From a virus (taxonomy: Duplodnaviria; Caudoviricetes), in IMG/VR virus record IMGVR_UViG_3300048562_000006, positions 1-25,483 of that record: a DNA stretch of 25,483 nt; one strand, written 5' to 3'. The position numbers and the translations under genes were made by a program. Under the pieces are notes generated by a model. That model ran no database searches. It saw only the letters and a program-made list of their open reading frames with translations, and had not been told where the DNA came from. Shown one piece after another: positions 5,881-20,306 of this stretch (its first letter is position 1; every line of letters starts with the position of its first letter).

Positions 5881-5884
5881 CCAC

Positions 5885-5941
5885 GTCAAGCCGCTTCTCA
5901 CGAAGCGGTTTGGAGGCTAAACAGTCCGGCCTAAAGGACTG
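5885..5941 (+). ncRNA. Structured cis-RNA motif, copy 1 (hairpin plus H-type pseudoknot)
   Basis: Hairpin AAGCCGCTTC-TCAC-GAAGCGGTTT; interlocked stems AGGCT/GGCCT and CAGTCC/GGACTG; covaries with copy 2. Confidence 0.65.
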
Positions 5942-6137: not shown

Positions 6138-6146
6138 GACGGCCAA

Positions 6147-6205
6147 GTCAAGCCGCTTAGCAATAGGCGGTTTGGAGGGTTAAGCAGTCCGCCCTAATGG
6201 ATTGC
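6147..6205 (+). ncRNA. Structured cis-RNA motif, copy 2 (GNRA hairpin plus pseudoknot)
   Basis: Hairpin AAGCCGCTTA-GCAA-TAGGCGGTTT; stems AGGGT/GCCCT and GCAGTCC/GGATTGC. Confidence 0.65.
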
Positions 6206-6912: not shown

Positions 6913-9372
6913 TCAATCGTTGTAGTATTGTCCGGCTGGAGCAGGGCCGGGCTTCAGGGATAGGCCGACGATAATCATACTCCCCGATTTTCGCTTGCCA
7001 AATCCCCGCGATTCAAGCCGCGCAGAGAATCGCTTTTGCGATACCGGCATTTCACCGCGCTCCTGTACAAAATGCCGATATGATTTATAGGCATCGCTTG
7101 CCCTGCATTCCCCGCCGAGGTCGCAACTCTCGTGTATCCATGCAGCTAAGGTATCCTCGTCGTCCAGATAATCCTTGGTCGCCTCTTCCACGGCTTCCGG
7201 TTTGCCGAGGCCGTAATCCTGCCACGCTAGACATCCGTCAATCGCCCATTGCAGGATTGCAGGCCATTCAGCGCGGAGTTTCTCGGGTAGGTCGTATATG
7301 CGATCCTCGACCGGAACGGCACCAGGGAAATTGACTAAGTGCATGCGTCGGCGGATTTCTTCGCCTGTGGATTTTAGGGAGGGCCGGAAGTTGGCCCCAA
7401 TAATGAGTTTCCCTTGAGGCCGAAATGTAAAAGGTGACTGATATAGCCGCCGCGCAGATATCGTATCGCGCCCGGTGATTAGCTTTAAGAGCGCCTCGTT
7501 CCACCGACTCCCTTCTTCCGGTTCGCTGGCCCGAATCATCCTTGCTCCTGCTATCTCTGCCATTTCCGAGCTATGCCGCTCAATTTTGCTTTCCATGAGC
7601 ATTTCGATTTTCGCTGTGACGCAATAGTCCCCGAGCATATCTCCTAGACAGTCGATAAATTTTGATTTGCCGGAGTTGCCCTCGCCAACTACTAGCAACA
7701 TAGCTTCTTCGCGGCAATCCCCGGTAAGCATATATCCGGCCCATCGCTAGTAGTAATCACGCATTGAGTCATCGCCGTTTGTGCATCGCGCTAGCACGCT
7801 GTCCCAATACGGCATCGGGCCGCGCTTTGGGGAGACTGCGGTTATTTTGGTTATGTGCATTTCCGGCGTTGCTTCGATAAGCTTGCCTTCGCGCAGATCA
7901 ACTACACCGTCCGGCGTGCCGAGCAACCACGGATCAGAATCAAAATCGGCGGCCAGCATGGCATGGTTCTTTTCCCGCCCAGCTAGATACAGCACATTGC
8001 GAATCATGCCGCGACTGCAAATCGAGTTTTTCTGACTGCGGGAGAGATTTCCGGAACCGGGCCAAGTGACCACCTCGCGCATCTTTCGCAGCGTTTCGGG
8101 GACTATGGATTCCTTTTCGTCCATAAGCCACCTTACGCTATCCCATTTAAGCCATTTATCCCAAGCCGCGACGTATTTCCACGCGCCATCCGCTGATGCG
8201 CTCCATGCTTGCGCTAGGGCGTCTTCGCTAAACTCTGGTGGCAGGTATTCGGCAATCTGGACATCGCGCTTGCGGACAAGTGCGCCTTCAAACTCGATGA
8301 TCTCTGCTGTAGCCTGATGGCTTTCCGGCTTTGATACAGCCTCTATGGGCGGTTTTTCTGATGGGGTTGATACCTCGGCATTGCTAGCGGCTTCAATGGC
8401 GTCTGATTCTGTTTTTTTTTCCATCGCCTCAACTTTCTGCCGTAGCCGATCATCCTCGATTTCCTGCGATGTTACACGCTTCAATCTTTCCCTCGCCCAT
8501 ACTACCGCTTGCGCCCCATCCCAATCAACTGCGTCGCCTAAATCCCACGCCTCGGGCATATCAGTTGTGTCTATAAGTTCTACGGTGCAGTTTATTGCCA
8601 ACAGGAATCCGGCGATTGTTCGCATTGCGGCCATCCCCGGAGCGTCTGCATCCGGGCACAAGATAACGTGTCGGCCTGATAGTGGCGTCCAATCTATGTG
8701 CCATACCGCGTCCGATCCGCCTGGCCATGTCATGCACACCATGCCGCCGATCAATGCTTGCGCTGCGTCTGCGGCCTTCTCGCCTTCGCACAATAGCACC
8801 TTTGCATCTGGTCGCTTCGCCAGTATATCCAGACCGTATAGAGGGCGTGGCGATGGCCATGTCAGGGATCGCCATTCAAGCGGGGCGGCTATCTCTCCGA
8901 ACCGGCCAAACGTCCACGGGCGGTAAGTCTCGCGCCCATCTTTTATGTAACGGCAAACGAAGCCGATTGTCTGCCCGGCTTTGTCATAGTATCGCCAACT
9001 TGCTGTAGGTTCGCCAAGCCCTTTAATGGCAAAGCTGGCTGGCTTCGTATCTGTCGGGTGCGTATGCCACTTGCCGCTAGTGGTGAGGACTTCTTTGATT
9101 GGCGTTAGGGTTGTCGGCGTGTAGTTCTCGCCTTCGACTATTTTCTTAGCGGCCTTGAATCCACAGCTTTCCATACGCATAACGAAAGCGTAAGCATCAT
9201 CATGCGTAGGGCACCCGAAGCAATGCGCGATCCACTTTTCCCCATTGTGATACACGGACATTGACGGCGTTTCGTCAAGGTGCGCCGGGTTATAGCAGCA
9301 ACACTCGTAACGGTTTCCCCTCTCCTTGAGCTTGATGCCGTAGGAGAGCATTATTTCCGGTAATTCGCGCAT
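6913..9372 (-). pseudogene. P4/D5-type primase-helicase (Zn-binding domain, TOPRIM, D5_N, SF3 ATPase) interrupted by one in-frame TAG at 7749-7747
   Basis: ORF 7747-9372 (CHC2-like H..D..PS..CFGC; EGEKAADA; PDADAPG; WLLGTPDGVVDLREG) and ORF 6913-7731 (GEGNSGKS; LKLITGRDTISARRLY) share a frame and read DYY*RWAGYMLTG across the junction. Confidence 0.85.
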
Positions 9373-9479
9373 TGACGTAAAAGTCGGATTTTTAGTATTG
9401 CTTGTTGTTAAGAATCAATGTGATGCGTTGGTGCGACGGTTTGTTTTACGTCAATTAGGACGTCTACTTCACGTTATGT
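9373..9479 (+). other. attI-like site 1 (core GTTATGT at 9473-9479)
   Basis: TTAGGACGTCTACTTCAC-GTT; the core pairs with R'' of the next attC; no attC left half; 12-bp inverted repeat ATTGACGTAAAA at 9371-9382 and 9444-9455. Confidence 0.65.
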
Positions 9480-9480
9480 G

Positions 9481-10140
9481 TCAAAGCAGCGCCTCCTGTA
9501 CCGCCGCCGGTTTCGGTTCCGGTGGCAGCAGTTGGCCCTGCGCCTGTGCCCGCGAAATCCGCTCGCAGGCCAAATCGAAATACTTGCGCTCGCGTTCAAT
9601 CCCGGTGAATGTTTTGCCCAGCATCGCGCAGGCAACCCCGGTCGTTCCGCTGCCCATGAATGGGTCGCAAACCGTCTCAGCGTTCGCCACCTTGTCAATG
9701 CACCACGCCATCAAGTCAATCGGTTTCTGTGTCGGGTGCTCTTTCCCGCCGTCCATGTTCATCGGGCGCTTGCGGAAAATCCTCGCCACCGCGTCAATGC
9801 TTGTCCAAGCCATCTCACAGTCCGCAAAGTCGCGCCCGTCGTTCTGTTTGTCCCAAATCAGGAAGCACCGCGCCGGCCCCATCGTGTAGTAGTTGCCGCC
9901 CCACACAATCAAGTCTCGCGCCCAGTCGTGCAGCATCAGCATCAACCATTGCGGCACAGGCTTGTCGTCCCAGGTCTCGCCGCCGTGCCCCCGGCTGGTT
10001 GCCAGTCTGTGGCTCTTGTTAATCCCAATGCCGTAGGGTGGGTCAGTCAAAATCAGGTCGCTCTGCGGCAGCAAAGGCAAAACCTCGCGGCAGTCCCCGT
10101 GCCACAACTCCGCATTCCCGATCACTACTTTTTCCGCCAC
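9481..10140 (-). CDS. DNA methyltransferase, N6-adenine/N4-cytosine, beta class (cassette A1)
   Basis: LTDPPYG, HPTQKP and DPFMGSGTT motifs; GTG start at 10140 with an RBS (alternative ATG at 10194). Confidence 0.92.
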   Translation of the reverse strand: MAEKVVIGNAELWHGDCREVLPLLPQSDLILTDPPYGIGINKSHRLATSRGHGGETWDDKPVPQWLMLMLHDWARDLIVWGGNYYTMGPARCFLIWDKQNDGRDFADCEMAWTSIDAVARIFRKRPMNMDGGKEHPTQKPIDLMAWCIDKVANAETVCDPFMGSGTTGVACAMLGKTFTGIERERKYFDLACERISRAQAQGQLLPPEPKPAAVQEALL

Positions 10141-10190
10141 TTCGTTTCCTTTCTTCGCCGTACCGCCAGCGCCGACTTTTACCGTTTGAC

Positions 10191-10258
10191 CCATAACACG
10201 TCGCTCAACACGGACGCAGGCGATAAAGCCGCCTGCGCCGGTTAGCTAGGCGTTAGGC
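10191..10258 (+). repeat. attC site A1
   Basis: CCATAAC...GCT[C]AAC[A]CGG...CCGGTTAGC...GTTAGGC, 68 bp, with two unpaired bases. Confidence 0.9.
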
Positions 10259-10557
10259 GTCCGTCTGTTCCACGCTGCTATCGCCTCTTCCTTGGTGTCG
10301 CCATGAATCTCGGCACCGCATCCACCGTAGTTCGTGGCGCAATGAATCCCCCAGCACCATTGCTCTTTCGGCACTTCTAGGGTGCGGCGGTATGTGCGCA
10401 GCCCGATTTCTTCGTCATCCTTCCATCCGGTGCCGGACGGGTACATCGTATCCTCACCAACTTCGCCGTTGTCATGCATTGGTTTCCCACAAAACGGGCA
10501 CGGCAGCAGCCTAACAAGTACGTCAACCGGACCTTGCGCAATAACCGTCGTTTTCAT
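10246..10557 (-). CDS. Lar-like (restriction alleviation) Zn-finger protein (cassette A2)
   Basis: LLPCPFCG...C...GCGA...EEAIAAWNRR; RBS and start lie inside attC A2. Confidence 0.8.
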   Translation of the reverse strand: MKTTVIAQGPVDVLVRLLPCPFCGKPMHDNGEVGEDTMYPSGTGWKDDEEIGLRTYRRTLEVPKEQWCWGIHCATNYGGCGAEIHGDTKEEAIAAWNRRTPNA

Positions 10558-10602
10558 CTTCAAGACCTTCCGGCGCAAGGCCGGTTACCTAGATCGTTAG
10601 CC
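10509..10602 (+). repeat. attC site A2
   Basis: GCCTAAC...GT[C]AACCGG...CCGGTTAC...GTTAGCC, 94 bp. Confidence 0.88.
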
Positions 10603-10603
10603 A

Positions 10604-10924
10604 TCATGATCCAGCATCCAGCAGTAGCTGCGACAGCAGGTAACAAAACGGCTCGCCTCCTGCGTCCCGTGGGTCGATCCCGCACCGCTCGAACAGATGC
10701 AGTACCGCGTGCGAAAGTTCGTGGGCGAGGGTATGCGGCTGCGCTCCCCAAACGAGGTACGTCCACATTCCGTCTTTCCCTTCGCCGCCGGAGAACCGCC
10801 CTTCCTGCGCGCACGTCAGAACGTCCGGCGTCTTGAACAGCTTCCTGTGCGCCTTCTCGTACCCTTTTGCCGTCTTCGCCACGAACAGCCGCCCGTGGTA
10901 CGGTCGCAGTGAAAGCTCGCGCAT
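10604..10924 (-). CDS. Hypothetical protein with an HExxH motif (cassette A3)
   Basis: TLAHELSHAVLH...EPFCY; fills the cassette. Confidence 0.75.
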   Translation of the reverse strand: MRELSLRPYHGRLFVAKTAKGYEKAHRKLFKTPDVLTCAQEGRFSGGEGKDGMWTYLVWGAQPHTLAHELSHAVLHLFERCGIDPRDAGGEPFCYLLSQLLLDAGS

Positions 10925-10927
10925 GAT

Positions 10928-10996
10928 GGCTAACCCTGCGTTCCAGCGGAGGCTGCGCCATGAAGCGGCGCATCCCCGCTGAACTCTACGTTATAC
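10928..10996 (+). repeat. attC site A3
   Basis: GGCTAAC...GTT[C]CAGCGG...CCGCTGAAC...GTTATAC, 69 bp. Confidence 0.9.
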
Positions 10997-11200
10997 AACT
11001 CGCTCTCTCAGCTTCGCGGTCAGCACGGCGCACTTTGCAGCACTCTGCGCCGACGACTGAATCACGAATCCCATGTAATCCTCAAGCCAGTCAATCGCAT
11101 CGCGCGAAAGCTCAGGATTCAAAAACCCTTTGTCAAAAAGCGTCGTTGTCAGGTCTTTCGCTTGGCGCTGGTAGTAAGGTTCCACTGTTATTTCGCTCAT
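10991..11200 (-). CDS. Hypothetical protein (cassette A4)
   Basis: GGAGG RBS, starts MSEITVEP; TAA stop lies within the core site. Confidence 0.75.
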   Translation of the reverse strand: MSEITVEPYYQRQAKDLTTTLFDKGFLNPELSRDAIDWLEDYMGFVIQSSAQSAAKCAVLTAKLRERVV

Positions 11201-11213
11201 ACTTTCCTCCGTT

Positions 11214-11281
11214 GTATAACTAATCGTTCCAGCGGAGCTACGCAATAAGGCCGCGTAGCCCGCTGAACTCAGACGTTAGAG
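11214..11281 (+). repeat. attC site A4
   Basis: GTATAAC...GTT[C]CAGCGG...CCGCTGAAC...GTTAGAG, 68 bp. Confidence 0.9.
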
Positions 11282-11532
11282 CGCAAATCCTCAACAAACT
11301 TTGTTGCGCTCGGAACGTCAGCCCATGCTTTCGTGCCACGCTCAATAGCTATCGCCAGATCGACGGCGTTCTTTGCAATTGCTTCAGCGTCTTTTCTTCC
11401 ATTTCTGTACCCGGCCATGTATGCGGACTTGCAAGCGCCATCAATTTCTGACAACTGCGCCTGAGAAACACGCCCGAATAGTCTGGTCAGCTTCTCGCTC
11501 CGTTTTTTCCAGTCAGTGAAACTCATGTTCAT
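11269..11532 (-). CDS. Hypothetical protein (cassette A5)
   Basis: GGAG RBS, MNMSFTDW...RSNV; stop lies inside attC A4. Confidence 0.7.
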   Translation of the reverse strand: MNMSFTDWKKRSEKLTRLFGRVSQAQLSEIDGACKSAYMAGYRNGRKDAEAIAKNAVDLAIAIERGTKAWADVPSATKFVEDLRSNV

Positions 11533-11550
11533 ACTCCGTGGTTGTTTGCG

Positions 11551-11613
11551 CTCTAACATTCCGGTCCAGCAGATCGGCCGCAAGCGGCCTCCTGCTGACC
11601 TACAGCGTTAGCG
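11551..11613 (+). repeat. attC site A5
   Basis: CTCTAAC...GGT[C]CAGCAG...CTGCTGACC...GTTAGCG, 63 bp. Confidence 0.9.
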
Positions 11614-11828
11614 GGCTGGCAACTAATCGTGCATTCAATGTCATTGGATGGGTATGCCTTGCGTTGACACCAAATGATGCTGCCCCACACGCCATCAATG
11701 ATCCTTCTAGCTTGCGTGTCGGTAAGGTTTGTGATGGTCAGCGTAACCAAATCGCCCGCTAACCCGGCAGTCGACACGGACTGTCCGACGATGCCTTCGC
11801 TTGCGTTCTGTGGTTGCTCGTCGCTCAT
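11553..11828 (-). CDS. Hypothetical protein (cassette A6)
   Basis: AAGGA RBS and ATG inside attC A6; reads through attC A5. Confidence 0.6.
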   Translation of the reverse strand: MSDEQPQNASEGIVGQSVSTAGLAGDLVTLTITNLTDTQARRIIDGVWGSIIWCQRKAYPSNDIECTISCQPANAVGQQEAACGRSAGPEC

Positions 11829-11878
11829 CGCTATTCCTTTACTTTGTCCCCGGCCAGCCGGTCACTTGGGACGTAGAG
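11757..11878 (+). repeat. attC site A6 (long loop; R' lacks one T)
   Basis: CGCTAAC...AGT[C]GAC[A]CGG...CCGGTCACT...GTAGAGC; GTTAGAGC is expected from the partner core GCTCTAAC. Confidence 0.8.
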
Positions 11879-12183
11879 CGCATGTCGATTTCGCGCTCAC
11901 AATTCGCCGCCGTCAGCCGCGCCATGCGTGCGCTCTTGCAATCGAGCGTTTCGCCATCCTCCGGCCAAATGTCGGTTGGGTACTGCGCGGCTATCTTGCG
12001 GCAAGCCTCTTTGCAGGCTCCGCGCTCTGCTGCCGTTATCAGGTCTGCGAACCTTTGCAGTTCTTCCCACGTTGGCGCGTCAGCTAACGCCGCCATGTCG
12101 CCGACCATCACAGCAATGCCAGCATCAATAGCGGCTCTAACTGTCACGTCGTTCGGACCTGCCGCAATAGGCGCATCAGGCAT
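11839..12183 (-). CDS. Hypothetical phage protein (cassette A7)
   Basis: AAGGA RBS and ATG inside attC A7; LQRFADLITAAERGACKEAC resembles common phage 'AEREAC' proteins. Confidence 0.7.
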   Translation of the reverse strand: MPDAPIAAGPNDVTVRAAIDAGIAVMVGDMAALADAPTWEELQRFADLITAAERGACKEACRKIAAQYPTDIWPEDGETLDCKSARMARLTAANCEREIDMRSTSQVTGWPGTK

Positions 12184-12228
12184 CTTCAATCCTTTCCGAG
12201 CGGCAGTCCGCACACGTTGGCGTTCGGC
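12135..12228 (+). repeat. attC site A7
   Basis: CTCTAAC...CGGACCTGCCGC-loop-GCGGCAGTCCG...GTTCGGC, 94 bp. Confidence 0.78.
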
Positions 12229-12497
12229 GTCGCGCTTCTCGCGCTGTAATGCGGCACGGACTCGCCAGTGACATCCCATACCGTTGTCGCTCCTGTTGTG
12301 CAGTCCTTTACCGACACCCTGACAGTCTTGTTCTTGCCTGCTATGTCGTATTCAGCGCCGTTCATGTCGTGCCACTCGGCCCACCGTGAAGCCATCTCTC
12401 GCGGCCCTTCCCAAGTGTCGGCGGTTCCCTTAATTGCGTCACCTTCACTTTCTCCGTACTCCTCGCACCACATCAGGTACTTTCGCTGCTCACTCAC
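12186..12497 (-). CDS. Hypothetical protein (cassette A8)
   Basis: AGAGGA RBS and GTG start; the C-terminus (TPNANV...) is encoded by attC A7. Confidence 0.75.
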   Translation of the reverse strand: MSEQRKYLMWCEEYGESEGDAIKGTADTWEGPREMASRWAEWHDMNGAEYDIAGKNKTVRVSVKDCTTGATTVWDVTGESVPHYSARSATPNANVCGLPLGKD

Positions 12498-12991
12498 GGT
12501 CTATCCTCTCTGCGGGCCGAACCCGCGCTTCGAGCGGGACTGTCTGCAAGCTGCGCTTGAATCCAGCCCCTCAAGCTAAACGTGTGGGTCGCAAGCCATG
12601 CCACAAGCTCATCCGCGTCACGAAATACAGACCAAGCCGCATCCGCGTCGTCATAGTGCGTGTAGTAACTGTCTCCGTCGTGGTTGTAGTCAGCGCCAAC
12701 TTGTACGCTTGTCGGGTTTCCGTTCGCGTCTCGGTGCCAGCGCAGCAAGCTCGGCCCGCCATGCAGAGGTAGCGCGGTTGCCGCGTCCTGCCACATATTG
12801 TCGCCCTCAAACTTTGCAAAGTGCGGATGTTTCGGGTAAATGTAGGCGTACACACACCAGCGGTTCTCCCCTTCGCTTGCATGCGTCGTCAGCCGCTCAC
12901 TGTCGTATGTCGGCGTCGTGTGATGACTCACCTCAACACAGAAGCCTTCTCCGCGCCGGTGCCAGAGTTCTTTCCGTTTCCAGTTGTCCAT
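12494..12991 (-). CDS. Hypothetical phage backbone protein
   Basis: GGGGAAG RBS; WCVYAYIYPKHP and QVGADYNH motifs; the 3' end reads through attC A8. Confidence 0.8.
   Translation of the reverse strand: MDNWKRKELWHRRGEGFCVEVSHHTTPTYDSERLTTHASEGENRWCVYAYIYPKHPHFAKFEGDNMWQDAATALPLHGGPSLLRWHRDANGNPTSVQVGADYNHDGDSYYTHYDDADAAWSVFRDADELVAWLATHTFSLRGWIQAQLADSPARSAGSARREDRP
12516..12589 (+). repeat. attC site A8 (terminal; degenerate R' GTGTGGGT)
   Basis: GCCGAAC...GCTT[C]GAG[C]GGG...CCCCTCAAGC...GTGTGGGT. Confidence 0.78.
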
Positions 12992-13004
12992 TTACTTCTT
13001 CCCC

Positions 13005-13544
13005 TCAAAAGTCGGCGCCCTCAACTTGTACGTTAATCGCCCTCAACACATCCTCCGCACAAGTAGCAAATATCCCCACTCCGCCAGCATCGCGCACCAT
13101 CTGTAGAAATGCGGCTTGTTCATGTTCATGTGCCTTTTGCGGCTTAATCCAGTCTCGACGCTTTCCATCAATTGCGAATAACCGAAAATCGGTTAGCAAT
13201 CCCCAAAAATCCACAATAGTCATATCTATATCTTCTGGCGTCTTGATGATATTGTAGAACCAGACTGGTACGTCTATTAGATTCCCATGCTTGTCGCGCC
13301 TTGTATAGGATGCTGCTCCTGTATTTTGCCTTACGGCAAATAGAACTTTTGGATGATTTGCTAAACACTCACTTATATCTGAATTGACAGCCGCCTCTAG
13401 CTCATCCTTTGGTGAGTGGTTCTTTATCTCGCGCTTCGGCTTGACATCGATATGCACAGTCTGTGGCTTGCCGTACATTGCGGCCCATGCGTCCAGCCCT
13501 TTCTGGTTCTCGCGGAGTGTTTCGCGGAGAGGTTTTTTAGGCAT
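13005..13544 (-). CDS. VRR-NUC / PD-(D/E)xK-type nuclease
   Basis: DFWG...FAIDGK...EQAAFLQMVRDAGGVG pattern. Confidence 0.75.
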   Translation of the reverse strand: MPKKPLRETLRENQKGLDAWAAMYGKPQTVHIDVKPKREIKNHSPKDELEAAVNSDISECLANHPKVLFAVRQNTGAASYTRRDKHGNLIDVPVWFYNIIKTPEDIDMTIVDFWGLLTDFRLFAIDGKRRDWIKPQKAHEHEQAAFLQMVRDAGGVGIFATCAEDVLRAINVQVEGADF

Positions 13545-14303: not shown

Positions 14304-14531
14304 TTAAAGATTGCGGCTCTTATGCTCCCGTTCCCTGGTCAGAGGAAGGGCGGGATCATCCATTGCCATTACCTTGTAAGCCTGCCGCACCGGACATTCT
14401 ACGCCCTCCACATGAGCGATAAAAGCTGCGAGGAAGCCGAATGCTTCGTTGCCTGATCGCATCGGAATGTCCAGCGCGAATGTCGGCATGTTGGGTAGCG
14501 TAATTCTGGCTCTGATGCTTTGCGATGGCAT
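14304..14531 (-). CDS. Hypothetical protein (75 aa)
   Basis: ORF in operon direction starting right after attI-like element 2; weak RBS. Confidence 0.5.
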   Translation of the reverse strand: MPSQSIRARITLPNMPTFALDIPMRSGNEAFGFLAAFIAHVEGVECPVRQAYKVMAMDDPALPLTREREHKSRNL

Positions 14532-14637
14532 TTTAGGACGTACTATATTCGGCTAAGTTGTTGATGGATTAGGCCATTAGTTGCTGATATTCGTCTGTTT
14601 ATGTACCATTTTTTAGGCTCCCTACTTCTAGTTGGGG
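14532..14637 (+). other. attI-like site 2 (core GTTGGGG at 14631-14637)
   Basis: TTAGGCTCCCTACTTCTA-GTT; the core GTTGGGGGTC is exactly complementary to GACCCCCAAC at 14932-14941; a second TTTTAGG copy lies at about 14531. Confidence 0.65.
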
Positions 14638-14897
14638 GTCAATGCGGCTTCTATCCGATCCGCTAAGTCGTTTCCTTGTATATTTAAATCGCGGTGGTCA
14701 AGATTTGATAGCGCGTCTCTCAATAATGTTCGCAATAGCCTGTTTTCTTCTAGGCATTCCTTGTGTCCATCCGCGTTTGCTTCAATCACTCGGCGCAGGT
14801 CGTGTATTTCCGTCGCAGCGTCCATGCACCGGCATTGCAGTTCGTGGCTGCTTTCGTTCGTGCTGCTGTTCTTAAGCCGAATCAAAATGTCCTGCAT
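14628..14897 (-). CDS. Hypothetical coiled-coil protein (cassette B1)
   Basis: GGAG RBS; DAATEIHDLR...AALTPN; stop lies in the attI-like site. Confidence 0.75.
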   Translation of the reverse strand: MQDILIRLKNSSTNESSHELQCRCMDAATEIHDLRRVIEANADGHKECLEENRLLRTLLRDALSNLDHRDLNIQGNDLADRIEAALTPN

Positions 14898-14934
14898 CGC
14901 GTTCTCCAAAAGTCAGTCTCTCCAGCACGGCGAC

Positions 14935-15004
14935 CCCCAACATTCCGGTGCAGGGGAGCCGTGCAAGCTACGCTTGCCCGTCCCCCTGACCTTGCACGTT
15001 CGGC
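14935..15004 (+). repeat. attC site B1
   Basis: CCCCAAC...GGT[G]CAGGGG...CCCCTGACC...GTTCGGC, 70 bp. Confidence 0.88.
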
Positions 15005-15005
15005 G

Positions 15006-15320
15006 TCACACCCGTTTGCCGCCGTGCCTGTGTCCGCGTCCCTTGTTCTTCTCCATCTTCGCCCGCTCCGCCGCGTCGATGTCGAGTCCAAGCCCGCCCG
15101 CGCAATCCAGCACGCGAATCAGCGTGTCCGCCAGTTCTTCCTCGAAGTTCGCCTTGTCGTCGTGCCTAAACGCTTCAAGGGCTTCGGAAACCTCGCTGTG
15201 AATAAGCGCCAGTATTCCTGGGATTTTGTAGGTGTCTGCCCATTGCTCAGGTTCCAGCACCTTCCAGCCGTTTGCGCGGTTGATGTTGTTGATTTCTTTC
15301 GCAAGCTCGTTCATGCTCAT
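15006..15320 (-). CDS. MazG-like nucleotide pyrophosphohydrolase (cassette B2)
   Basis: LIHSEVSEALEAFR...EEELADTLIRVLD; AAGGAG RBS. Confidence 0.88.
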   Translation of the reverse strand: MSMNELAKEINNINRANGWKVLEPEQWADTYKIPGILALIHSEVSEALEAFRHDDKANFEEELADTLIRVLDCAGGLGLDIDAAERAKMEKNKGRGHRHGGKRV

Positions 15321-15347
15321 GCCTTCTCCTTAGTTGAAAGTCAGTCC

Positions 15348-15417
15348 GCCGAACACGGCGGTGAAGAGGGACGCCTGCCAGCTACGCTGTCAGTCGCCCC
15401 TTACCTCTACGTTGGGC
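15348..15417 (+). repeat. attC site B2
   Basis: GCCGAAC...GGT[G]AAG[A]GGG...CCCCTTACC...GTTGGGC, 70 bp. Confidence 0.88.
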
Positions 15418-15421
15418 GTCT

Positions 15422-15661
15422 TCATGCAACCTGCTCGCTGTCCAGCATCAATCCCCATCCGAGCGGCCTTGACGATAGCGACCCCGTATCTTCTTCGTGC
15501 GTCCAACGGTGATTACAGTTTCCGCACTCATGACTATCTCCGTCGCGGCCCACGTTCTCCGCTCCGCACTTTGGGCACTCGGGCATTTCTTCCCAATGGT
15601 TTTCACCGCAGCATCCCAGCTTTTCGCCTCTCGGCTCTCCGCAATACCCGCAAACTTCCAT
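15422..15661 (-). CDS. Small Cys-rich Zn-ribbon protein (cassette B3)
   Basis: CGYC, CCGENH, CPKC and CGNC; AAGGAG RBS. Confidence 0.75.
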   Translation of the reverse strand: MEVCGYCGEPRGEKLGCCGENHWEEMPECPKCGAENVGRDGDSHECGNCNHRWTHEEDTGSLSSRPLGWGLMLDSEQVA

Positions 15662-15691
15662 TCCGTTCTCCTTTCTTCTGGTCGGCAAGAC

Positions 15692-15748
15692 GCCGAACCC
15701 TACATTCAACCGGACGCAGTTCCGGCGCCGGTTAATTCCACGTTAGCA
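15692..15748 (+). repeat. attC site B3
   Basis: GCCGAAC...ATT[C]AACCGG...CCGGTTAAT...GTTAGCA, 57 bp. Confidence 0.9.
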
Positions 15749-15752
15749 GTCG

Positions 15753-16010
15753 TCATATCGTGAACGGCTCTTGCAAATCCTGCCAAGGAATAACCCGCGC
15801 CGCTTCCAGTTCGCGGATCGAGGCTTTTGCGTCCATGCCGGCTTTTTCCAGTTCCGCCTTGCCTTCCGGTGTCGCCATCCAAGCGCGCACCGCATCGGCT
15901 TGCACCTGTGCGGGTGAGCGCAGGAACGTCGGGACGGGAAAGACTGCTAACCCGTCGGTCGACGCGGACTCCGCGCCATCAGCCTTCGTTTTTGCGTTGT
16001 CAGTGCTCAT
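15753..16010 (-). CDS. Hypothetical protein (cassette B4)
   Basis: GGAG RBS and ATG inside attC B4. Confidence 0.7.
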   Translation of the reverse strand: MSTDNAKTKADGAESASTDGLAVFPVPTFLRSPAQVQADAVRAWMATPEGKAELEKAGMDAKASIRELEAARVIPWQDLQEPFTI

Positions 16011-16067
16011 GCCTTGTCTCCATCTTGTAGGTCGTTGGCGCGGAGCCGGTCACCTAGGACGTTATAC
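15945..16067 (+). repeat. attC site B4 (long loop)
   Basis: TGCTAAC...GGT[C]GAC[G]CGG-ACTCCGCGCCA-loop-TGGCGCGGAG-CCGGTCACC...GTTATAC, 123 bp. Confidence 0.88.
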
Positions 16068-16147
16068 GTAATGAACCGTTTGCCGACTTTACGGCCCGGT
16101 TTGCCCTGCACCACGGCGATCACAGGTTGGGGTTTTGAATTGCCCAT
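16007..16147 (-). CDS. 46-aa basic peptide (mini-cassette B5)
   Basis: MGNSKPQPVIAVVQGKPGRKVGKRFITYNV...; the TGA overlaps the next ATG; weak RBS. Confidence 0.4.
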   Translation of the reverse strand: MGNSKPQPVIAVVQGKPGRKVGKRFITYNVLGDRLRANDLQDGDKA

Positions 16148-16179
16148 TCTTGCTATAGGCTCACAATTTTAAGCATCAC

Positions 16180-16235
16180 GTATAACTGTGCTTTCGAGCG
16201 GGACGGCTTCGCCGCCCCTCAAAGCGGCGTTAGCC
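16180..16235 (+). repeat. attC site B5
   Basis: GTATAAC...GCTTT[C]GAG[C]GGG...CCCCTCAAAGC...GTTAGCC, 56 bp. Confidence 0.88.
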
Positions 16236-16667
16236 CTTAACGTCAACGTATTCCGTCGTCGGCGTGTATGGGAATGTCACTGGCACACAGCTATCGCCGC
16301 TGGTGTAGCTGCCGCCGTTCGGATCACGAAAGACGCGCCCTTGTGTGTCGTAGGCTTGCCCGTTGAAACGATCGGCCTGCTTGAATACGTGCGAACAGCG
16401 TTTGTTCTGAAACACGCCGTCGCTTGCTTCGTGCCACTCGTGGTCTTCGCCGGTTAGCGGCCCTAGCGGTTCAAACATCGCCAACTTCTCGAACACGCCA
16501 ACACAGTACGGCGCGGACGATCCGCTGTGCCCTTGCTCAGAAAAAACGCGCAGTAGCTCCATCACGTTCTGCTGAATCCATTTGTTTGGCCCATCTTCCT
16601 CTTCGTTAATCGGCTTGTAACCGAGCGCGAGGAATTCGCGCTTTGCATGCTCTACCAGATTGCTCAT
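16230..16667 (-). CDS. Conserved phage hypothetical protein (cassette B6)
   Basis: FSEQGHSGSSA...PLTGEDHEW...FQNKRCSHVFK...VTFPYTP; AGAGGA RBS; TAA lies in the core site. Confidence 0.85.
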   Translation of the reverse strand: MSNLVEHAKREFLALGYKPINEEEDGPNKWIQQNVMELLRVFSEQGHSGSSAPYCVGVFEKLAMFEPLGPLTGEDHEWHEASDGVFQNKRCSHVFKQADRFNGQAYDTQGRVFRDPNGGSYTSGDSCVPVTFPYTPTTEYVDVKG

Positions 16668-16690
16668 GTTCTTTCCTCTCTTCGTAATAG

Positions 16691-16757
16691 GGCTAACTAA
16701 TCAATCAACCCGGACGTGCCGATAATGCCGGCACGCCGGTTATTTCAGCCGTTAGTA
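16691..16757 (+). repeat. attC site B6 (terminal)
   Basis: GGCTAAC...AAT[C]AACCCGG...CCGGTTATT...GTTAGTA, 67 bp. Confidence 0.88.
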
Positions 16758-16964
16758 ATACTCCCGATCAATCTTAAGCTTCCCGCCAGTAATCACGTAA
16801 AGCTGAAATTGCCTCAGTTCAGGCACGCCTTTCCGTTGCCATCCCTTCAGTAGTTGCCGATAGATGCCATACTTGGCAAGTTCCATCTTCGCTTCACGGC
16901 TCAAAGGCAGTCCGCGTTCCCTAGGTTTCCCGCCGTAATGGCGAATGATGTCATCGTATGTCAT
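16752..16964 (-). CDS. Cro-like HTH transcriptional regulator
   Basis: MTYDDIIRHYGG...W...VPELRQFQLYVITGGKLK, an N15/P22 Cro-like pattern; first gene of the leftward operon. Confidence 0.75.
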   Translation of the reverse strand: MTYDDIIRHYGGKPRERGLPLSREAKMELAKYGIYRQLLKGWQRKGVPELRQFQLYVITGGKLKIDREYY

Positions 16965-16970
16965 GGCTGG

Positions 16971-17046
16971 ATTAAATCACACTAAAAAACAATTTGCAAG
17001 ATGTACTGAAAAATAACTTGACATTTTTTTTGCTATCTGCCAAAGT
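16971..17046. promoter_or_regulatory. Divergent sigma70-type promoters
   Basis: Leftward TTGCAA-17-TTTAAT (16999-16971); rightward TTGACA at 17018-17023 with a weak -10. Confidence 0.6.
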
Positions 17047-17076
17047 GACCATACGCAATCACACAGGGGTATCACC

Positions 17077-17283
17077 GTGGCAATCGAAATGAACATCTTT
17101 GAAGGCGAGTCTGTCGCCATCACGAATCACATTGGAACGTCCGGTAGCAAATGGGTCAAGATCGTAGTCCGCGACGTGCATAACCAGCGGCATGAGATTC
17201 ACATCATTCCGGCTGATTCGCAGCGCAACATGGCGTTTTTTATCGGCTGCGACGAGATTGATACTAACAAGGAGGCTGCATAA
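17077..17283 (+). CDS. Hypothetical protein (68 aa)
   Basis: AGGGG RBS, GTG start, TAATG coupling. Confidence 0.7.
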   Translation: MAIEMNIFEGESVAITNHIGTSGSKWVKIVVRDVHNQRHEIHIIPADSQRNMAFFIGCDEIDTNKEAA

Positions 17284-17522
17284 TGGCTGAAGGCAAGAAG
17301 GGCCGCATGACTCGCAGCATTATCACCGCCCTAACCGGCCAGCCTGAACCGCCCTGCACGGTATTCCAATGCCAGCACGCTATGGAGTGCGCAGAATGCC
17401 GCAAAGCCTGTATGTCGTTCTATCGCTATGTCACCAGCGCATCGGGGCGATTCCCTGCTGGATATAGTTTCCGCGAACCGACTGACTTTTACTACCTCAA
17501 AATATTTGAGGGGGAGGAATGA
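17283..17522 (+). CDS. Cys-rich hypothetical protein (79 aa)
   Basis: AAGGAGG RBS; PC...C...C..C...C pattern. Confidence 0.7.
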   Translation: MAEGKKGRMTRSIITALTGQPEPPCTVFQCQHAMECAECRKACMSFYRYVTSASGRFPAGYSFREPTDFYYLKIFEGEE

Positions 17523-17523
17523 A

Positions 17524-18141
17524 ATGAAAATTGAAATCAAGTGCCGCTTTACTGGAAACGTATTGTTCTCGCATGATGTTGAAAACAATTCTATGCGCTT
17601 AACCATAGAGGCTGCCGTTGCGGCACGGGCCAACATGGCACGGGCCAACATGGAAGGGGCCTACATGGCACGGGCCAACATGGCAGGGGCCTACATGGCA
17701 GGGGCCTACATGGCAGGGGCCAACATGGAATGGGCCAACATGGCACGGGCCAACATGGCAGGGGCCAACATGGCAGGGGCCAACATGGAAGGGGCCTACA
17801 TGGCAGGGGCCTACATGGCAGGGGCCAACATGGAAGGGGCCTACATGGCAGGGGCCAACATGGCAGGGGCCAACATGGAAGGGGCCAACATGGCAGGGGC
17901 CGATCTGGATGGTGAAATCTTGAAGATAGCTCCACTATCTCTGATGAATCTCAAATGGAGTGTGCTGATAACCGCCGAGTGCATGCGGATCGGTTGCCAG
18001 CGCCACAAGCATGAGGAATGGGCGGCGTTTGACGATGATGAGATTAAAGGAATGGCCAGCGGCGCTAATGAGTTCTGGCGCGATTGGAAAGAGCCGCTTA
18101 TGCTGCTTTGCGCACGCCACAAGGAACAGGCCGCAAAATGA
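17524..18141 (+). CDS. Pentapeptide-repeat protein (Met-centred repeats)
   Basis: [16 protein letters not shown]-terminus, 18 x [AE][GRW]A[NY]M repeats, C-terminal [11 protein letters not shown] domain. Confidence 0.9.
17623..17907 (+). repeat. 15-bp coding tandem repeat, 19 units
   Basis: Consensus G[CA]A[GC]GGGCC[AT]ACATG. Confidence 0.95.
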
Positions 18142-18350
18142 CAACCTACATCGTCTATCGGCAAGACACTCCGATACCCACAGGCCGCAAGATCAACAAG
18201 TTTGGCGAATTCGACAAGCGCGGCGAGTACGATGAGCATTCAGCGAATCTGGTTGCACTCGGTCATGTTACCGCAGCGTCCAATGACGATGCGTGGAAGC
18301 AGGCCAAGCGGATGACTCTTAAACCTGTATTGGAGGAGATAAAGGAATGA
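18138..18350 (+). CDS. Hypothetical protein (70 aa)
   Basis: ATGA overlaps at both ends. Confidence 0.7.
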   Translation: MTTYIVYRQDTPIPTGRKINKFGEFDKRGEYDEHSANLVALGHVTAASNDDAWKQAKRMTLKPVLEEIKE

Positions 18351-19060
18351 GCGAACAACAATTTCATCATGAAGTAATGTCAGAGAGAGAAATGAAAGAT
18401 AACTTGGGCGTCTACAAAGCCATCGCAGCCATTACCGCCGCTATGGCTAAGGAGGGCATCGGCAAGAACCGCAAGAATCAGCAGCAAGGGTATTCCTTCC
18501 GAGGTATTGACGATATCTACAATGTACTGTCAGGGATGCTGGCCGAAAACGGGTTGTGCATCATTCCGCGCATCCTTAGCCGTGTTTGTGAGGAGCGTAC
18601 AACGCAGAAGGGTAACGCTCTTTTTTATGTTACTGTGGAAGCCGAATACGATCTTGTCGCGGCTAAGGATGGAAGCAAGCATACTGCAAAGGTATTCGGT
18701 GAGGCGATGGATAGCGCCGACAAGGCTACCAACAAAGCCATGAGTGCGGCTTACAAGTACATGGCTTTCCAGACTTTTGCTATTCCAACAGAAGGCGACA
18801 ATGATGCTGATTCTGTTACGCATTCCGTTGCCCCTGCAAAGAAACCGCCAGAACCTTACGACTACAACAAAGCCTTCGATGACATGGCCGAGGCCGTGAG
18901 CTTGCCGCAGCTTCAGTCTATCTTTGCTCCTGCATACAGACACGCGCAAGACGATGGAAATACCGACATGCTTGCAGAGGTCAAAGCGAAGTACGAGTAT
19001 TTCAAGGCCAAGCTCGCGGCCAACGATGCGAAGAAAGCGCCGGAAGGAGAGGTAATCTAA
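18347..19060 (+). CDS. erf: ERF-family single-strand annealing protein
   Basis: GYSFRGIDDIYN...GEAMDSADKATNKAMSAAYKY...FAIPTE. Confidence 0.85.
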   Translation: MSEQQFHHEVMSEREMKDNLGVYKAIAAITAAMAKEGIGKNRKNQQQGYSFRGIDDIYNVLSGMLAENGLCIIPRILSRVCEERTTQKGNALFYVTVEAEYDLVAAKDGSKHTAKVFGEAMDSADKATNKAMSAAYKYMAFQTFAIPTEGDNDADSVTHSVAPAKKPPEPYDYNKAFDDMAEAVSLPQLQSIFAPAYRHAQDDGNTDMLAEVKAKYEYFKAKLAANDAKKAPEGEVI

Positions 19061-19245
19061 TGCCCAAATGCAGATCATGCGGATGCACGCTAGGCTGTGA
19101 CTCGGACAGCGGCGAGTACATCAAGGAAACTGGCGAGTTCGTTTGCGACGGCTGCTATGATCCTTACTGCAACGAGGATATCAACGACGATTACGAACGG
19201 ACAGACAAGACGGCACCGCTAACCGACATAGGAGGAATAGAATGA
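19060..19245 (+). CDS. Small Zn-finger protein (61 aa)
   Basis: CRSC...CDGC; GAGG RBS; TAATG coupling. Confidence 0.7.
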   Translation: MPKCRSCGCTLGCDSDSGEYIKETGEFVCDGCYDPYCNEDINDDYERTDKTAPLTDIGGIE

Positions 19246-19397
19246 ACCTACTCCACCGCATCTGGCTGCGTCATCTTCGATTCTGGCATACCATCGACCT
19301 TGACGCGGCGCTGCAAACAGAAAATTGGGATATGGCTACCGATTGCAGGCTGCGCATCGCTGAGTGTGACAGGCAGATTGACGGGCTGGCGTTATGA
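19242..19397 (+). CDS. Hypothetical protein (51 aa, MNLLHRIWLRH...)
   Basis: AGGAGG RBS; ATGA overlaps on both sides. Confidence 0.65.
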   Translation: MNLLHRIWLRHLRFWHTIDLDAALQTENWDMATDCRLRIAECDRQIDGLAL

Positions 19398-19651
19398 CCG
19401 GCCTAACTCCAATCGTCTCACTGTCCATGCTCTGCGGCGTGCTGGTAACGTCCAATATTGCCAGCCTGATGCACGCCAATGATATGAGGCATAAAGCCGC
19501 TATTGCCGAAGCCAATCTGGTGCAAGCCGAGCGCAAATGGATGGCGTGCCATAACGACGGCGTCTATACTGTGGGCACGGACATCTATTTGAGCAAGGTT
19601 AGGAAAAGCGAGATGACTACGGCACAGGTTTATGAGGTTAGCGGGTTGTAA
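19394..19651 (+). CDS. Hypothetical membrane-anchored protein (85 aa)
   Basis: Hydrophobic N-terminus; its TAA stop forms part of the attC C1 core (TAAC). Confidence 0.7.
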   Translation: MTGLTPIVSLSMLCGVLVTSNIASLMHANDMRHKAAIAEANLVQAERKWMACHNDGVYTVGTDIYLSKVRKSEMTTAQVYEVSGL

Positions 19652-19732
19652 CGTGTAGGTGACCGGCGCTGCGCGGCTTCATCGCGCAGCGTCCAGAGAG
19701 CGAAGCGAACGAGGTCGACCGTAGGGTTATGC
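19646..19732 (-). repeat. attC site C1 (inverted relative to arrays 1 and 2)
   Basis: Minus strand reads GCATAAC...GGT[C]GACC...GCTGCGCGATGAAGCCGCGCAGC...GGTCACC...GTTACAA, 87 bp. Confidence 0.88.
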
Positions 19733-19754
19733 CTCATTGGTAAAAGGAGTTGAT

Positions 19755-19949
19755 ATGTGGTGCTGGCACAAGTGGGGAAAGTGGAGCGACCCGACAAACG
19801 GCATTTACTCGCCCTTCGGGCCGACCGGATACAGTGAGGTTGGATACTTCGCTGTGGCGCAAATGCGGATTTGCGAAAAGTGCGGAGTAGCGCAGCATCG
19901 CACGCTGCCGAAGGTGCGAAGCCTGGCATCCCTGAAGGGAGAACGGTGA
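19755..19949 (+). CDS. Small hypothetical protein (cassette C1)
   Basis: AAGGAG RBS; CWHKWGKW...QMRICEKCG. Confidence 0.75.
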   Translation: MWCWHKWGKWSDPTNGIYSPFGPTGYSEVGYFAVAQMRICEKCGVAQHRTLPKVRSLASLKGER

Positions 19950-19950
19950 G

Positions 19951-20072
19951 GCATAACTAGAAGTAGACACCCTAATTGAATTGCGAAATGGGGCGCAGCA
20001 AACGCTAATGTACGTTGATAATCAATGCCAATCCGAGACGCTAATCTGATATTAGCAGGGGGCGCGTAAATT
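19951..20072 (-). other. attI-like site 3 (core GTTATGC at 19957-19951)
   Basis: Minus strand reads CAATTAGGGTGTCTACTTCTA-GTT, with the same motif and spacing as sites 1 and 2. Confidence 0.65.
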
Positions 20073-20306
20073 ATGACAACAGGTAAAGAACTATTAATTA
20101 TGTCTCAACCTACAATTTCAGAAATAATTGATAAGCAGCAATGCGAAATAGATCGTTTGAGAAATCGGCTGGCAGAAATCAGGGAAGTATGGGCAGGAGC
20201 GGAAGTCGGAGAGCCTGTTTATGCTCAAGAAGCCTACGCAATTAGGCTATGTAAGCAAATGTATGATCTTGCTTGCGATGCTTTGTATTTGAAAATAATT
20301 TCATGA
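20073..20306 (+). CDS. Hypothetical protein (77 aa)
   Basis: ORF in operon direction (EIREVWAGAE...YAQEAY); the start position is uncertain. Confidence 0.65.
   Translation: MTTGKELLIMSQPTISEIIDKQQCEIDRLRNRLAEIREVWAGAEVGEPVYAQEAYAIRLCKQMYDLACDALYLKIIS

Follow-up and report, generated by a model that had tools for sequence, protein, structure and literature searches.

Three attI-like sites at the head of cassette arrays with reversed genes in a tailed phage: probable docks for a host integron integrase

Integrons are familiar from bacteria, where they store genes for resistance and for defence against phages; the DNA considered here belongs to a phage. The window, by which is meant the whole stretch of 25,483 nucleotides (25.5 kb) that was analysed, is part of a tailed phage with genes for portal, terminase, primase, an Erf-like protein, an endolysin and tail proteins. 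It is the entire source record, estimated to be 67% complete; joined to contigs from bioreactor runs it becomes circular, at about 39.6 kb, and the roughly 14 kb that lies beyond the window is placed, by gene order, between the tail and the portal-side structural genes. Three arrays of gene cassettes are found in the window, and the preliminary description took the motif heading each of them for a dedicated attI-like insertion site.

The motif itself was as described: TTAGGN4CTACTTCN2GTT is found exactly at 9455-9475 (+), 14613-14633 (+) and 19955-19975 (-). It does not occur in 100 shuffles, but as the pattern was derived from the three sites themselves this test flatters it, and the weightier evidence is that from other genomes. 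When up to three mismatches are allowed, the 21-nt motif has a single extra match in the window, within the portal gene. That the sites have no attC left half was also borne out, as the three 118-nt site regions fold like shuffles (z -1.29, 0.20 and 0.23), and the idea that the motif is part of a long attC is ruled out by this folding. As controls, the bottom strands of five typical attC gave z from -3.4 to -4.3, while z lay between -2.1 and +1.3 for four attC that are longer or degenerate and for the broken site at the end of array 1.

The spacers next to the motif are AT-rich (37-44% GC vs 53% window-wide) and end at the ATG of the next backbone ORF, the distance from the G of GTT to the ATG being 101, 100 and 116 nt. 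The core of site 1 (9455..9479, +) has its crossover at G9473/T9474, and its GTTATGT pairs at six of seven positions with the R'' CCATAAC at 10191. Its upstream spacer (9371..9454, +) abuts the primase ATG and carries an IHF-like sequence at 9413-9425, the perfect 12-bp inverted repeat reported earlier (9371-9382/9444-9455), and a GACG..CGTC dyad (9435-9453) that is identical at 17 of 19 positions to that of an intI-adjacent bacterial locus, L247. The N-terminal primase ORF (7747..9372, -) starts at the position where intI starts in bacterial integrons with the same attI. A stop at 7747-7749, probably an error or a rare variant, divides the primase into two ORFs; contigs of three runs have a G at 7749, at full depth.

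The core of site 2 is found at 14613..14637 (+), with its crossover at G14631/T. Its spacer (14531..14612, +) contains a distal TTTTAGG..CTAT repeat (14531-14546) and an IHF-like sequence at 14554-14566 (-), and aligns to the intI-adjacent locus L245 with a score of 40 (shuffle maximum 33). The first cassette gene of array 2 ends on a TAG (14628-14630) that the core of this site provides; on the gene strand the attI core yields TAG stops in the AAC frame, and the first-cassette ORFs of several relatives end there. The core of site 3 (19951..19975, -) has its crossover at G19957/T, and its GTTATGC pairs with the R'' GCATAAC at all seven positions. The complementarity of the GTT core to the R'' of the first cassette attC is thus 6/7, 7/7 and 7/7 at sites 1, 2 and 3. 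The spacer of site 3 (19976..20072, -), with an RBS-like GGGGG ahead of the ATG at 20073, belongs to a module of about 113 bp that has 73-87% identical copies in related phage-like contigs and no match in the cultured phage or plasmid collections.

The claim of IHF-like cores in the spacers is weak for the phage copies. Scored against WATCAAN4TTR, which we take to be the IHF consensus, the mismatch count is one at sites 1 and 2 (reached in 67 and 54 of 500 shuffles) and three at site 3. With this consensus no phage copy is significant alone, while bacterial spacers match it in 30 of 57 cases against about seven expected. A LexA-like box is present in 13 of 58 bacterial spacers and in none of the three phage spacers.

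The arrays behind these sites have the features of integron cassettes. Our own strict finder detected 13 attC, and a hand-followed chain of R'/R'' junctions added two degenerate ones and a half-lost terminal one, giving 16 cassettes (9 + 6 + 1), of which 14 have junctions matching at 6-7 of 7 positions. The attC comprise R'', L'' with an extrahelical base, L' and R', as expected of integron attC. Array 1 (9474..13038, +, ORFs on -) contains nine cassettes with attC at 10191-10258, 10509-10602, 10928-10996, 11214-11281, 11551-11613, 11757-11879 (degenerate), 12135-12228 (degenerate), 12516-12588 and about 13013-13038, where the left half is lost. Its cargo includes a DNA methyltransferase, a Lar-like protein, phrog_1365, phrog_19490 and phrog_21008. 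Two of its attC are degenerate and the last is broken, which probably leaves parts of the array locked in place. Most of the hairpin is gone from the terminal attC at 13005-13038, as it is from one at about 31060-31090 in contig C1 of the relative G002, and a terminal attC of this kind would lock the last cassette in place. The upstream backbone ORF reads through the terminal attC in the window.

Array 2 (14632..16757, +, ORFs on -) contains six cassettes with attC at 14935-15004, 15348-15417, 15692-15748, 15945-16067, 16180-16235 and 16691-16757. Among its genes are a MazG-like one (15006-15320) and one of the Tad3 family (16230..16667, -; PF25185 E 4e-39, PDB 9b7d E 8e-14); Tad3 is reported to inhibit ThsB, the sensor of Thoeris (PMC13728456). 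The short cassette at 16062-16229, with 119 nt ahead of its attC, has no clear ORF and may be regulatory. Array 3 (19646..19956, -) consists of one cassette with an ORF at 19737-19949 (+) and an attC at 19646-19732. Arrays 1 and 2 have at least two attC and no nearby intI, and so are CALINs in the sense of Cury 2016; array 3, with its one attC, falls outside this class. The long attC at 11757-11879, 12135-12228 and 15945-16067 appear to include the RBS and start codon of their own reversed gene, and the 11757 type is also found in G002 and in contig C5 of G011 (G011:C5).

At their far ends arrays 2 and 3 are joined to backbone genes in a particular way. The cro-like gene (16752..16964, -) has its TAA stop inside the terminal GTTAGTA core of array 2, a junction that recurs in the relative L083, and the backbone ORF 19394-19651 has its TAA stop within the terminal core of array 3. 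This suggests that an empty site would consist of the end of the gene joined directly to attI.

The identity of the motif became clear from a comparison with the attI of bacterial integrons, for which a stricter version of the pattern, derived from the window and from the viral matches found first, was scanned. The species genomes gave 73 matches and the metagenomes, of which 37 of 64 parts were covered, 120; a divergent intI is found nearby in 28 and 35 of these, respectively. When only matches with enough flank are counted, intI lies within 600 nt upstream in 28/67 (genomes) and 35/65 (metagenomes). In all 63 intI-adjacent cases the gene is divergent and 89-273 nt away; these are loci and not independent events, 38 remaining after removal of near-duplicates, and one of the 28 from genomes (L216) belongs to G010, which is flagged as unpublished, also supplies one row of the tally of attI copies per genome, and carries none of the conclusions. 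Seventeen of 30 hand-picked upstream ORFs matched the TIGR02249 profile, 14 of them above the cut-off. The motif-bearing sequences are mostly labelled as Competibacteraceae, Accumulibacter, Rhodocyclaceae, Burkholderiales, Gallionellaceae and Chromatiales MAGs. As the motif adjoins a divergent intI at so many loci, it is, judged by its sequence context, an attI type of Beta- and Gammaproteobacterial integrons.

Compared with the chromosomal integrons of this type (L209, L217, L194, L234, L242), the phage sites have the same 21-nt core, crossover and attC polarity, similar attC sequences, and an opposite-strand start codon about 100 nt upstream. They differ in that intI is replaced by backbone genes, the cassette genes are reversed and the spacers have diverged. 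The bacterial sites share an upstream dyad and repeated TTAG elements; the repeats resemble the layout of attI1 and are candidate IntI-binding sites. Traces of these upstream elements are found at site 1 (p 0.014) and site 2 (p 0.038) and not at site 3 (p 0.27); the upstream-profile scores are -0.8, -3.2 and -13.1, the last at shuffle level, against a bacterial median of 11.4. The MAGs G006, G007, G008 and G009 (loci L217, L220, L194 and L200) have two to five attI copies, several of them beside intI, indicating that multi-integron genomes are common in this clade. Three bacterial loci (L235, L203, L231) have the same attI and normally oriented cassette arrays without an adjacent intI.

Are the phage sites used as insertion points? 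Eight of the 70 viral matches to the original pattern, on seven contigs, head attC arrays. The other 62 lack an attC downstream; most are chance matches in low-GC sequence, and a few are ended by the contig edge. At the eight sites the first R'' matches at 7/7 positions in seven cases and at 6/7 in one, and none has intI. G001 and G011:C5 also have three sites each, and L264 has two within 11.7 kb. In G001 these are near-identical modules of about 60 bp (C1 18731, 24801 and 35400), one with GTC instead of GTT. G002 has two attI sites and a third array with a degenerate head. The single-site phages G003 and G004 have no protein in common with the window; the site of G003 fronts an excisionase-like/integrase pair and that of G004 a DnaB helicase. 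A viral scan for variant cores gave six loci, three of them already known, one new with attC (L548) and two without. A viral scan based on a spacer sequence (TAYATTAGCRTTTGYTG; 31/64 parts) gave 120 matches, none with the motif core nearby. Among relatives by TerL and Erf, no attI-headed array was found in the stretches examined of 137 loci, except for a weak candidate with two mismatches (L302), and the whole records G013 and G014 contain no core; relatedness by TerL therefore does not in general bring the trait with it.

Sequence comparison among the relatives places cassette change at the G/TT point. L031 follows the window almost exactly as far as GTTA and then has unrelated sequence; G001 and L073 are 100% identical over 300 nt upstream and 26% after GTT; L084 and L214 have the same platform and different first cassettes, the break coming directly after GTT. 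One cassette, its two copies 99% identical from the crossover G onward, follows attI in L105 and an attC in L071. In an unrelated wastewater run, contigs match single cassettes of the window from crossover to attC (10595-10910, 11874-12163, 15740-16064, 16227-16716), and three of the four are preceded by other sequence. An empty attI site was not seen among the relatives examined, nor were excision or inversion joints in the contigs of four runs rich in this phage, contigs being prone to drop rare variants. The proposal that the sites act as dedicated insertion platforms is supported, as far as sequence comparison goes, by the identity of the motif with a bacterial attI, by the motif-headed arrays in other phages and by a cassette turnover that maps to GTT.

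The host integron integrase is the likely agent, working in trans on the phage attI and attC, with the reversed genes read through from phage operons; the source of the enzyme and the mode of expression are the deduced parts of this reading. With attI copies at phage gene junctions, the enzyme would insert and remove attC cassettes at GTT, presumably while the phage DNA is replicating. Transcription running on from the backbone gene upstream, which in arrays 2 and 3 has its stop codon in the last core, would express the cassettes, and new cassettes would land at the promoter-distal end of the array. The phage may benefit by exchanging counter-defence genes, such as the methylase and the Lar-like, MazG-like and Tad3-like genes. 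Sense cassettes from the host that land in such arrays would face away from early transcription and likely be silent. The candidate hosts are Beta- and Gammaproteobacteria of bioreactors and fresh water. As a hint and no more, the attC of array 3 is most like one in a Ca. Contendobacter integron, and it is common to many other contigs of the same runs.

It is improbable that the cassettes are instead moved by homologous recombination between repeated attC or attI modules, by the phage Erf or the host RecA. The window does encode an Erf-like protein, the spacer of L103 looks like a hybrid, and the 113-bp module is present twice, in inverted orientation, in G011:C5. However, the breakpoints fall 3-4 nt past the crossover G, at a point where GTT(A) is all that the old cassette has in common with the new, and homologous exchange would not be expected there. 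Module swaps and the inversion described next may be due to homologous recombination.

The backbone segment between the oppositely oriented arrays 2 and 3 (16752..19651), comprising the cro-like gene and a divergent early operon with Erf, ends at ORF 19394-19651 and is inverted in G002 relative to both flanks. G011:C5 has the linkage of G002, and L083 that of the window. As the site-3 module is on the lysis side in the window and G002 alike, the breakpoints of the inversion are within the arrays. The inversion could be made by IntI or by homologous recombination. The preliminary description had spoken of three independent cassette loci; three separate platforms there are, as in two other phage contigs, but the segment flanked by arrays 2 and 3 has the opposite orientation in relatives, so the loci may recombine with one another and their independence is to be taken with that reservation. 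A more far-reaching model, which we put forward tentatively and hold to be rather less probable than not, sees in this phage lineage a mirror-image integron running on the host integrase: several attI docks, a phage-specific pool of reversed cassettes with counter-defence genes, captured host cassettes silenced, and att joints that also flip the cro/early-operon segment, switching the promoter of the replication genes.

The orientation of the cassette genes is the other main feature. The extrahelical base in L'' is on the same strand as the GTT of the motif, which is the polarity seen beside intI, and the genes are on the opposite strand. Cassette genes of complete integrons point away from attI, while those of the window point towards it. 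All eight cassette ORFs of the window with a PHROG match are reversed, matching the direction of the phage operons. A wider comparison took each strand's longest ORF in 67 cassettes of 19 phage-like loci (113 ORFs) and in 42 intI-adjacent cassettes (75 ORFs). Profile-matched ORFs were 12 reversed and one normal in the phage-like arrays, and six normal and none reversed beside intI (Fisher p 0.0003), with the limits that the PHROGs and Pfam libraries differ between the two sets and that most ORFs are unmatched (100 of 113 in the phage-like arrays). Normally oriented cassettes do occur in some phage arrays. The lone normal match, the defence candidate PDC-S15 at 1211-2083 of L103, is in a phage-type array and is as expected of a captured host cassette. 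A TIR cassette is found in the intI-adjacent array L217. In RNA runs the array region is evenly covered, as seen in assembled contigs that hold no strand or transcription signal. According to the part of Nivina 2016 available, wrong-way insertion means top-strand recombination, which would flip the attC too. Since in the window the attC keep their normal orientation and the reversal is confined to the genes, the cassettes seem to have been built reversed and not inserted the wrong way.

These features bear on the view that the arrays are passive relics, pieces of host integrons (attI with cassettes) that came in by illegitimate recombination and have fallen out of use. Off-target or illegitimate recombination is the origin proposed for phage CALINs in the consulted text of Qi 2023 (PMC9892861), donors would be many given the two to five attI copies in host-like genomes, and array 1 contains decayed attC. 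The cargo, however, is phage-type and reversed, unlike that of intI-adjacent arrays; none of the window proteins match the 63 intI loci; the site-3 spacer profile matches 28 collected loci (12 of which it was built from), none of them intI-adjacent; and different first cassettes are found behind platforms identical over 300 nt. Taken together, this makes unused relics very improbable.

A recombinase of the phage's own, encoded outside the window, is highly improbable as the source of the presumed activity. No intI is found beside attI in the window, which covers 25.5 of the ~39.6 kb, and in G003 a tyrosine recombinase lies at 0.6 kb from the attI. Yet the missing part appears from gene order to lie among structural genes; a PF00589 profile search gave no match in the window or in the complete genomes of G002 and G004; and a tblastn search with IntI gave none in the window or six phage records. 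The G003 enzyme has no IntI match and follows an excisionase-sized ORF, as a prophage integrase would. It is scarcely credible that the motif is conserved chiefly because it signals transcription or translation of the next backbone gene, for although every spacer ends at an ATG and that of site 3 has the RBS-like GGGGG, a promoter and terminator scan of the site region gave nothing above chance, the conserved core is at the cassette boundary, and the identical core marks attI in bacteria.

An attI worked by a host integrase may be set beside known systems. The attI1 of class 1 integrons, described in the material available as having L and R boxes, DR1 and DR2, likewise has a GTT crossover at the head of the array and does not fold, but its sequence is different. 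The sites called attG, or SALIN, reportedly recognised by Loot et al. in 2024, are said to be cassettes integrated by IntI away from an integron. Array 3 resembles them in its single attC; the phage sites differ in that each is a complete, conserved copy of attI, heading as many as nine cassettes, and not a degenerate secondary site. Phage attC clusters have been published before: in the parts covered, Qi 2023 (PMC9892861) reports clusters without intI in phages, with methylase cargo as in the window, recombination of phage attC by IntI1, and a cryptic Shewanella prophage with an attI heading a CALIN. Several attI platforms or reversed genes in a phage do not appear in those parts, the words 'antisense' and 'in trans' are absent from the main text, and the supplement text is without the motif. 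A CALIN phage from that study, MW202573, shares a methylase and portal with the window, and contains neither the motif nor a strict attC in the 26 kb examined. A text search of the literature for the 21-nt motif gave unrelated primer matches only, among the matches listed. Multiple attI docks with reversed cassettes were not found in the literature searched, most subscription journals and bioRxiv supplements lying outside it, so that their absence is not proven.

The phage thus likely turns an integron docking site and a host enzyme to the shuffling of its own counter-defence genes, which would offer a precise mechanism for the turnover of phage accessory regions. The reversed cassettes are also relevant to the question of where cassettes originate. 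In the parts of Cury 2016 consulted, attI is stated to be unknown for most integrons; the 21-nt motif defines a type that seems common to many uncultured Beta- and Gammaproteobacteria and that current tools cannot annotate.

Two further observations concern repeats elsewhere in the window. Two hairpin-like repeats of 41 nt (5881-5921 and 6143-6183), 80% identical and on either side of a small ORF, were rejected as attC by our strict finder. The gene at 17522-18141 contains a tract of 15-nt (pentapeptide) repeats.
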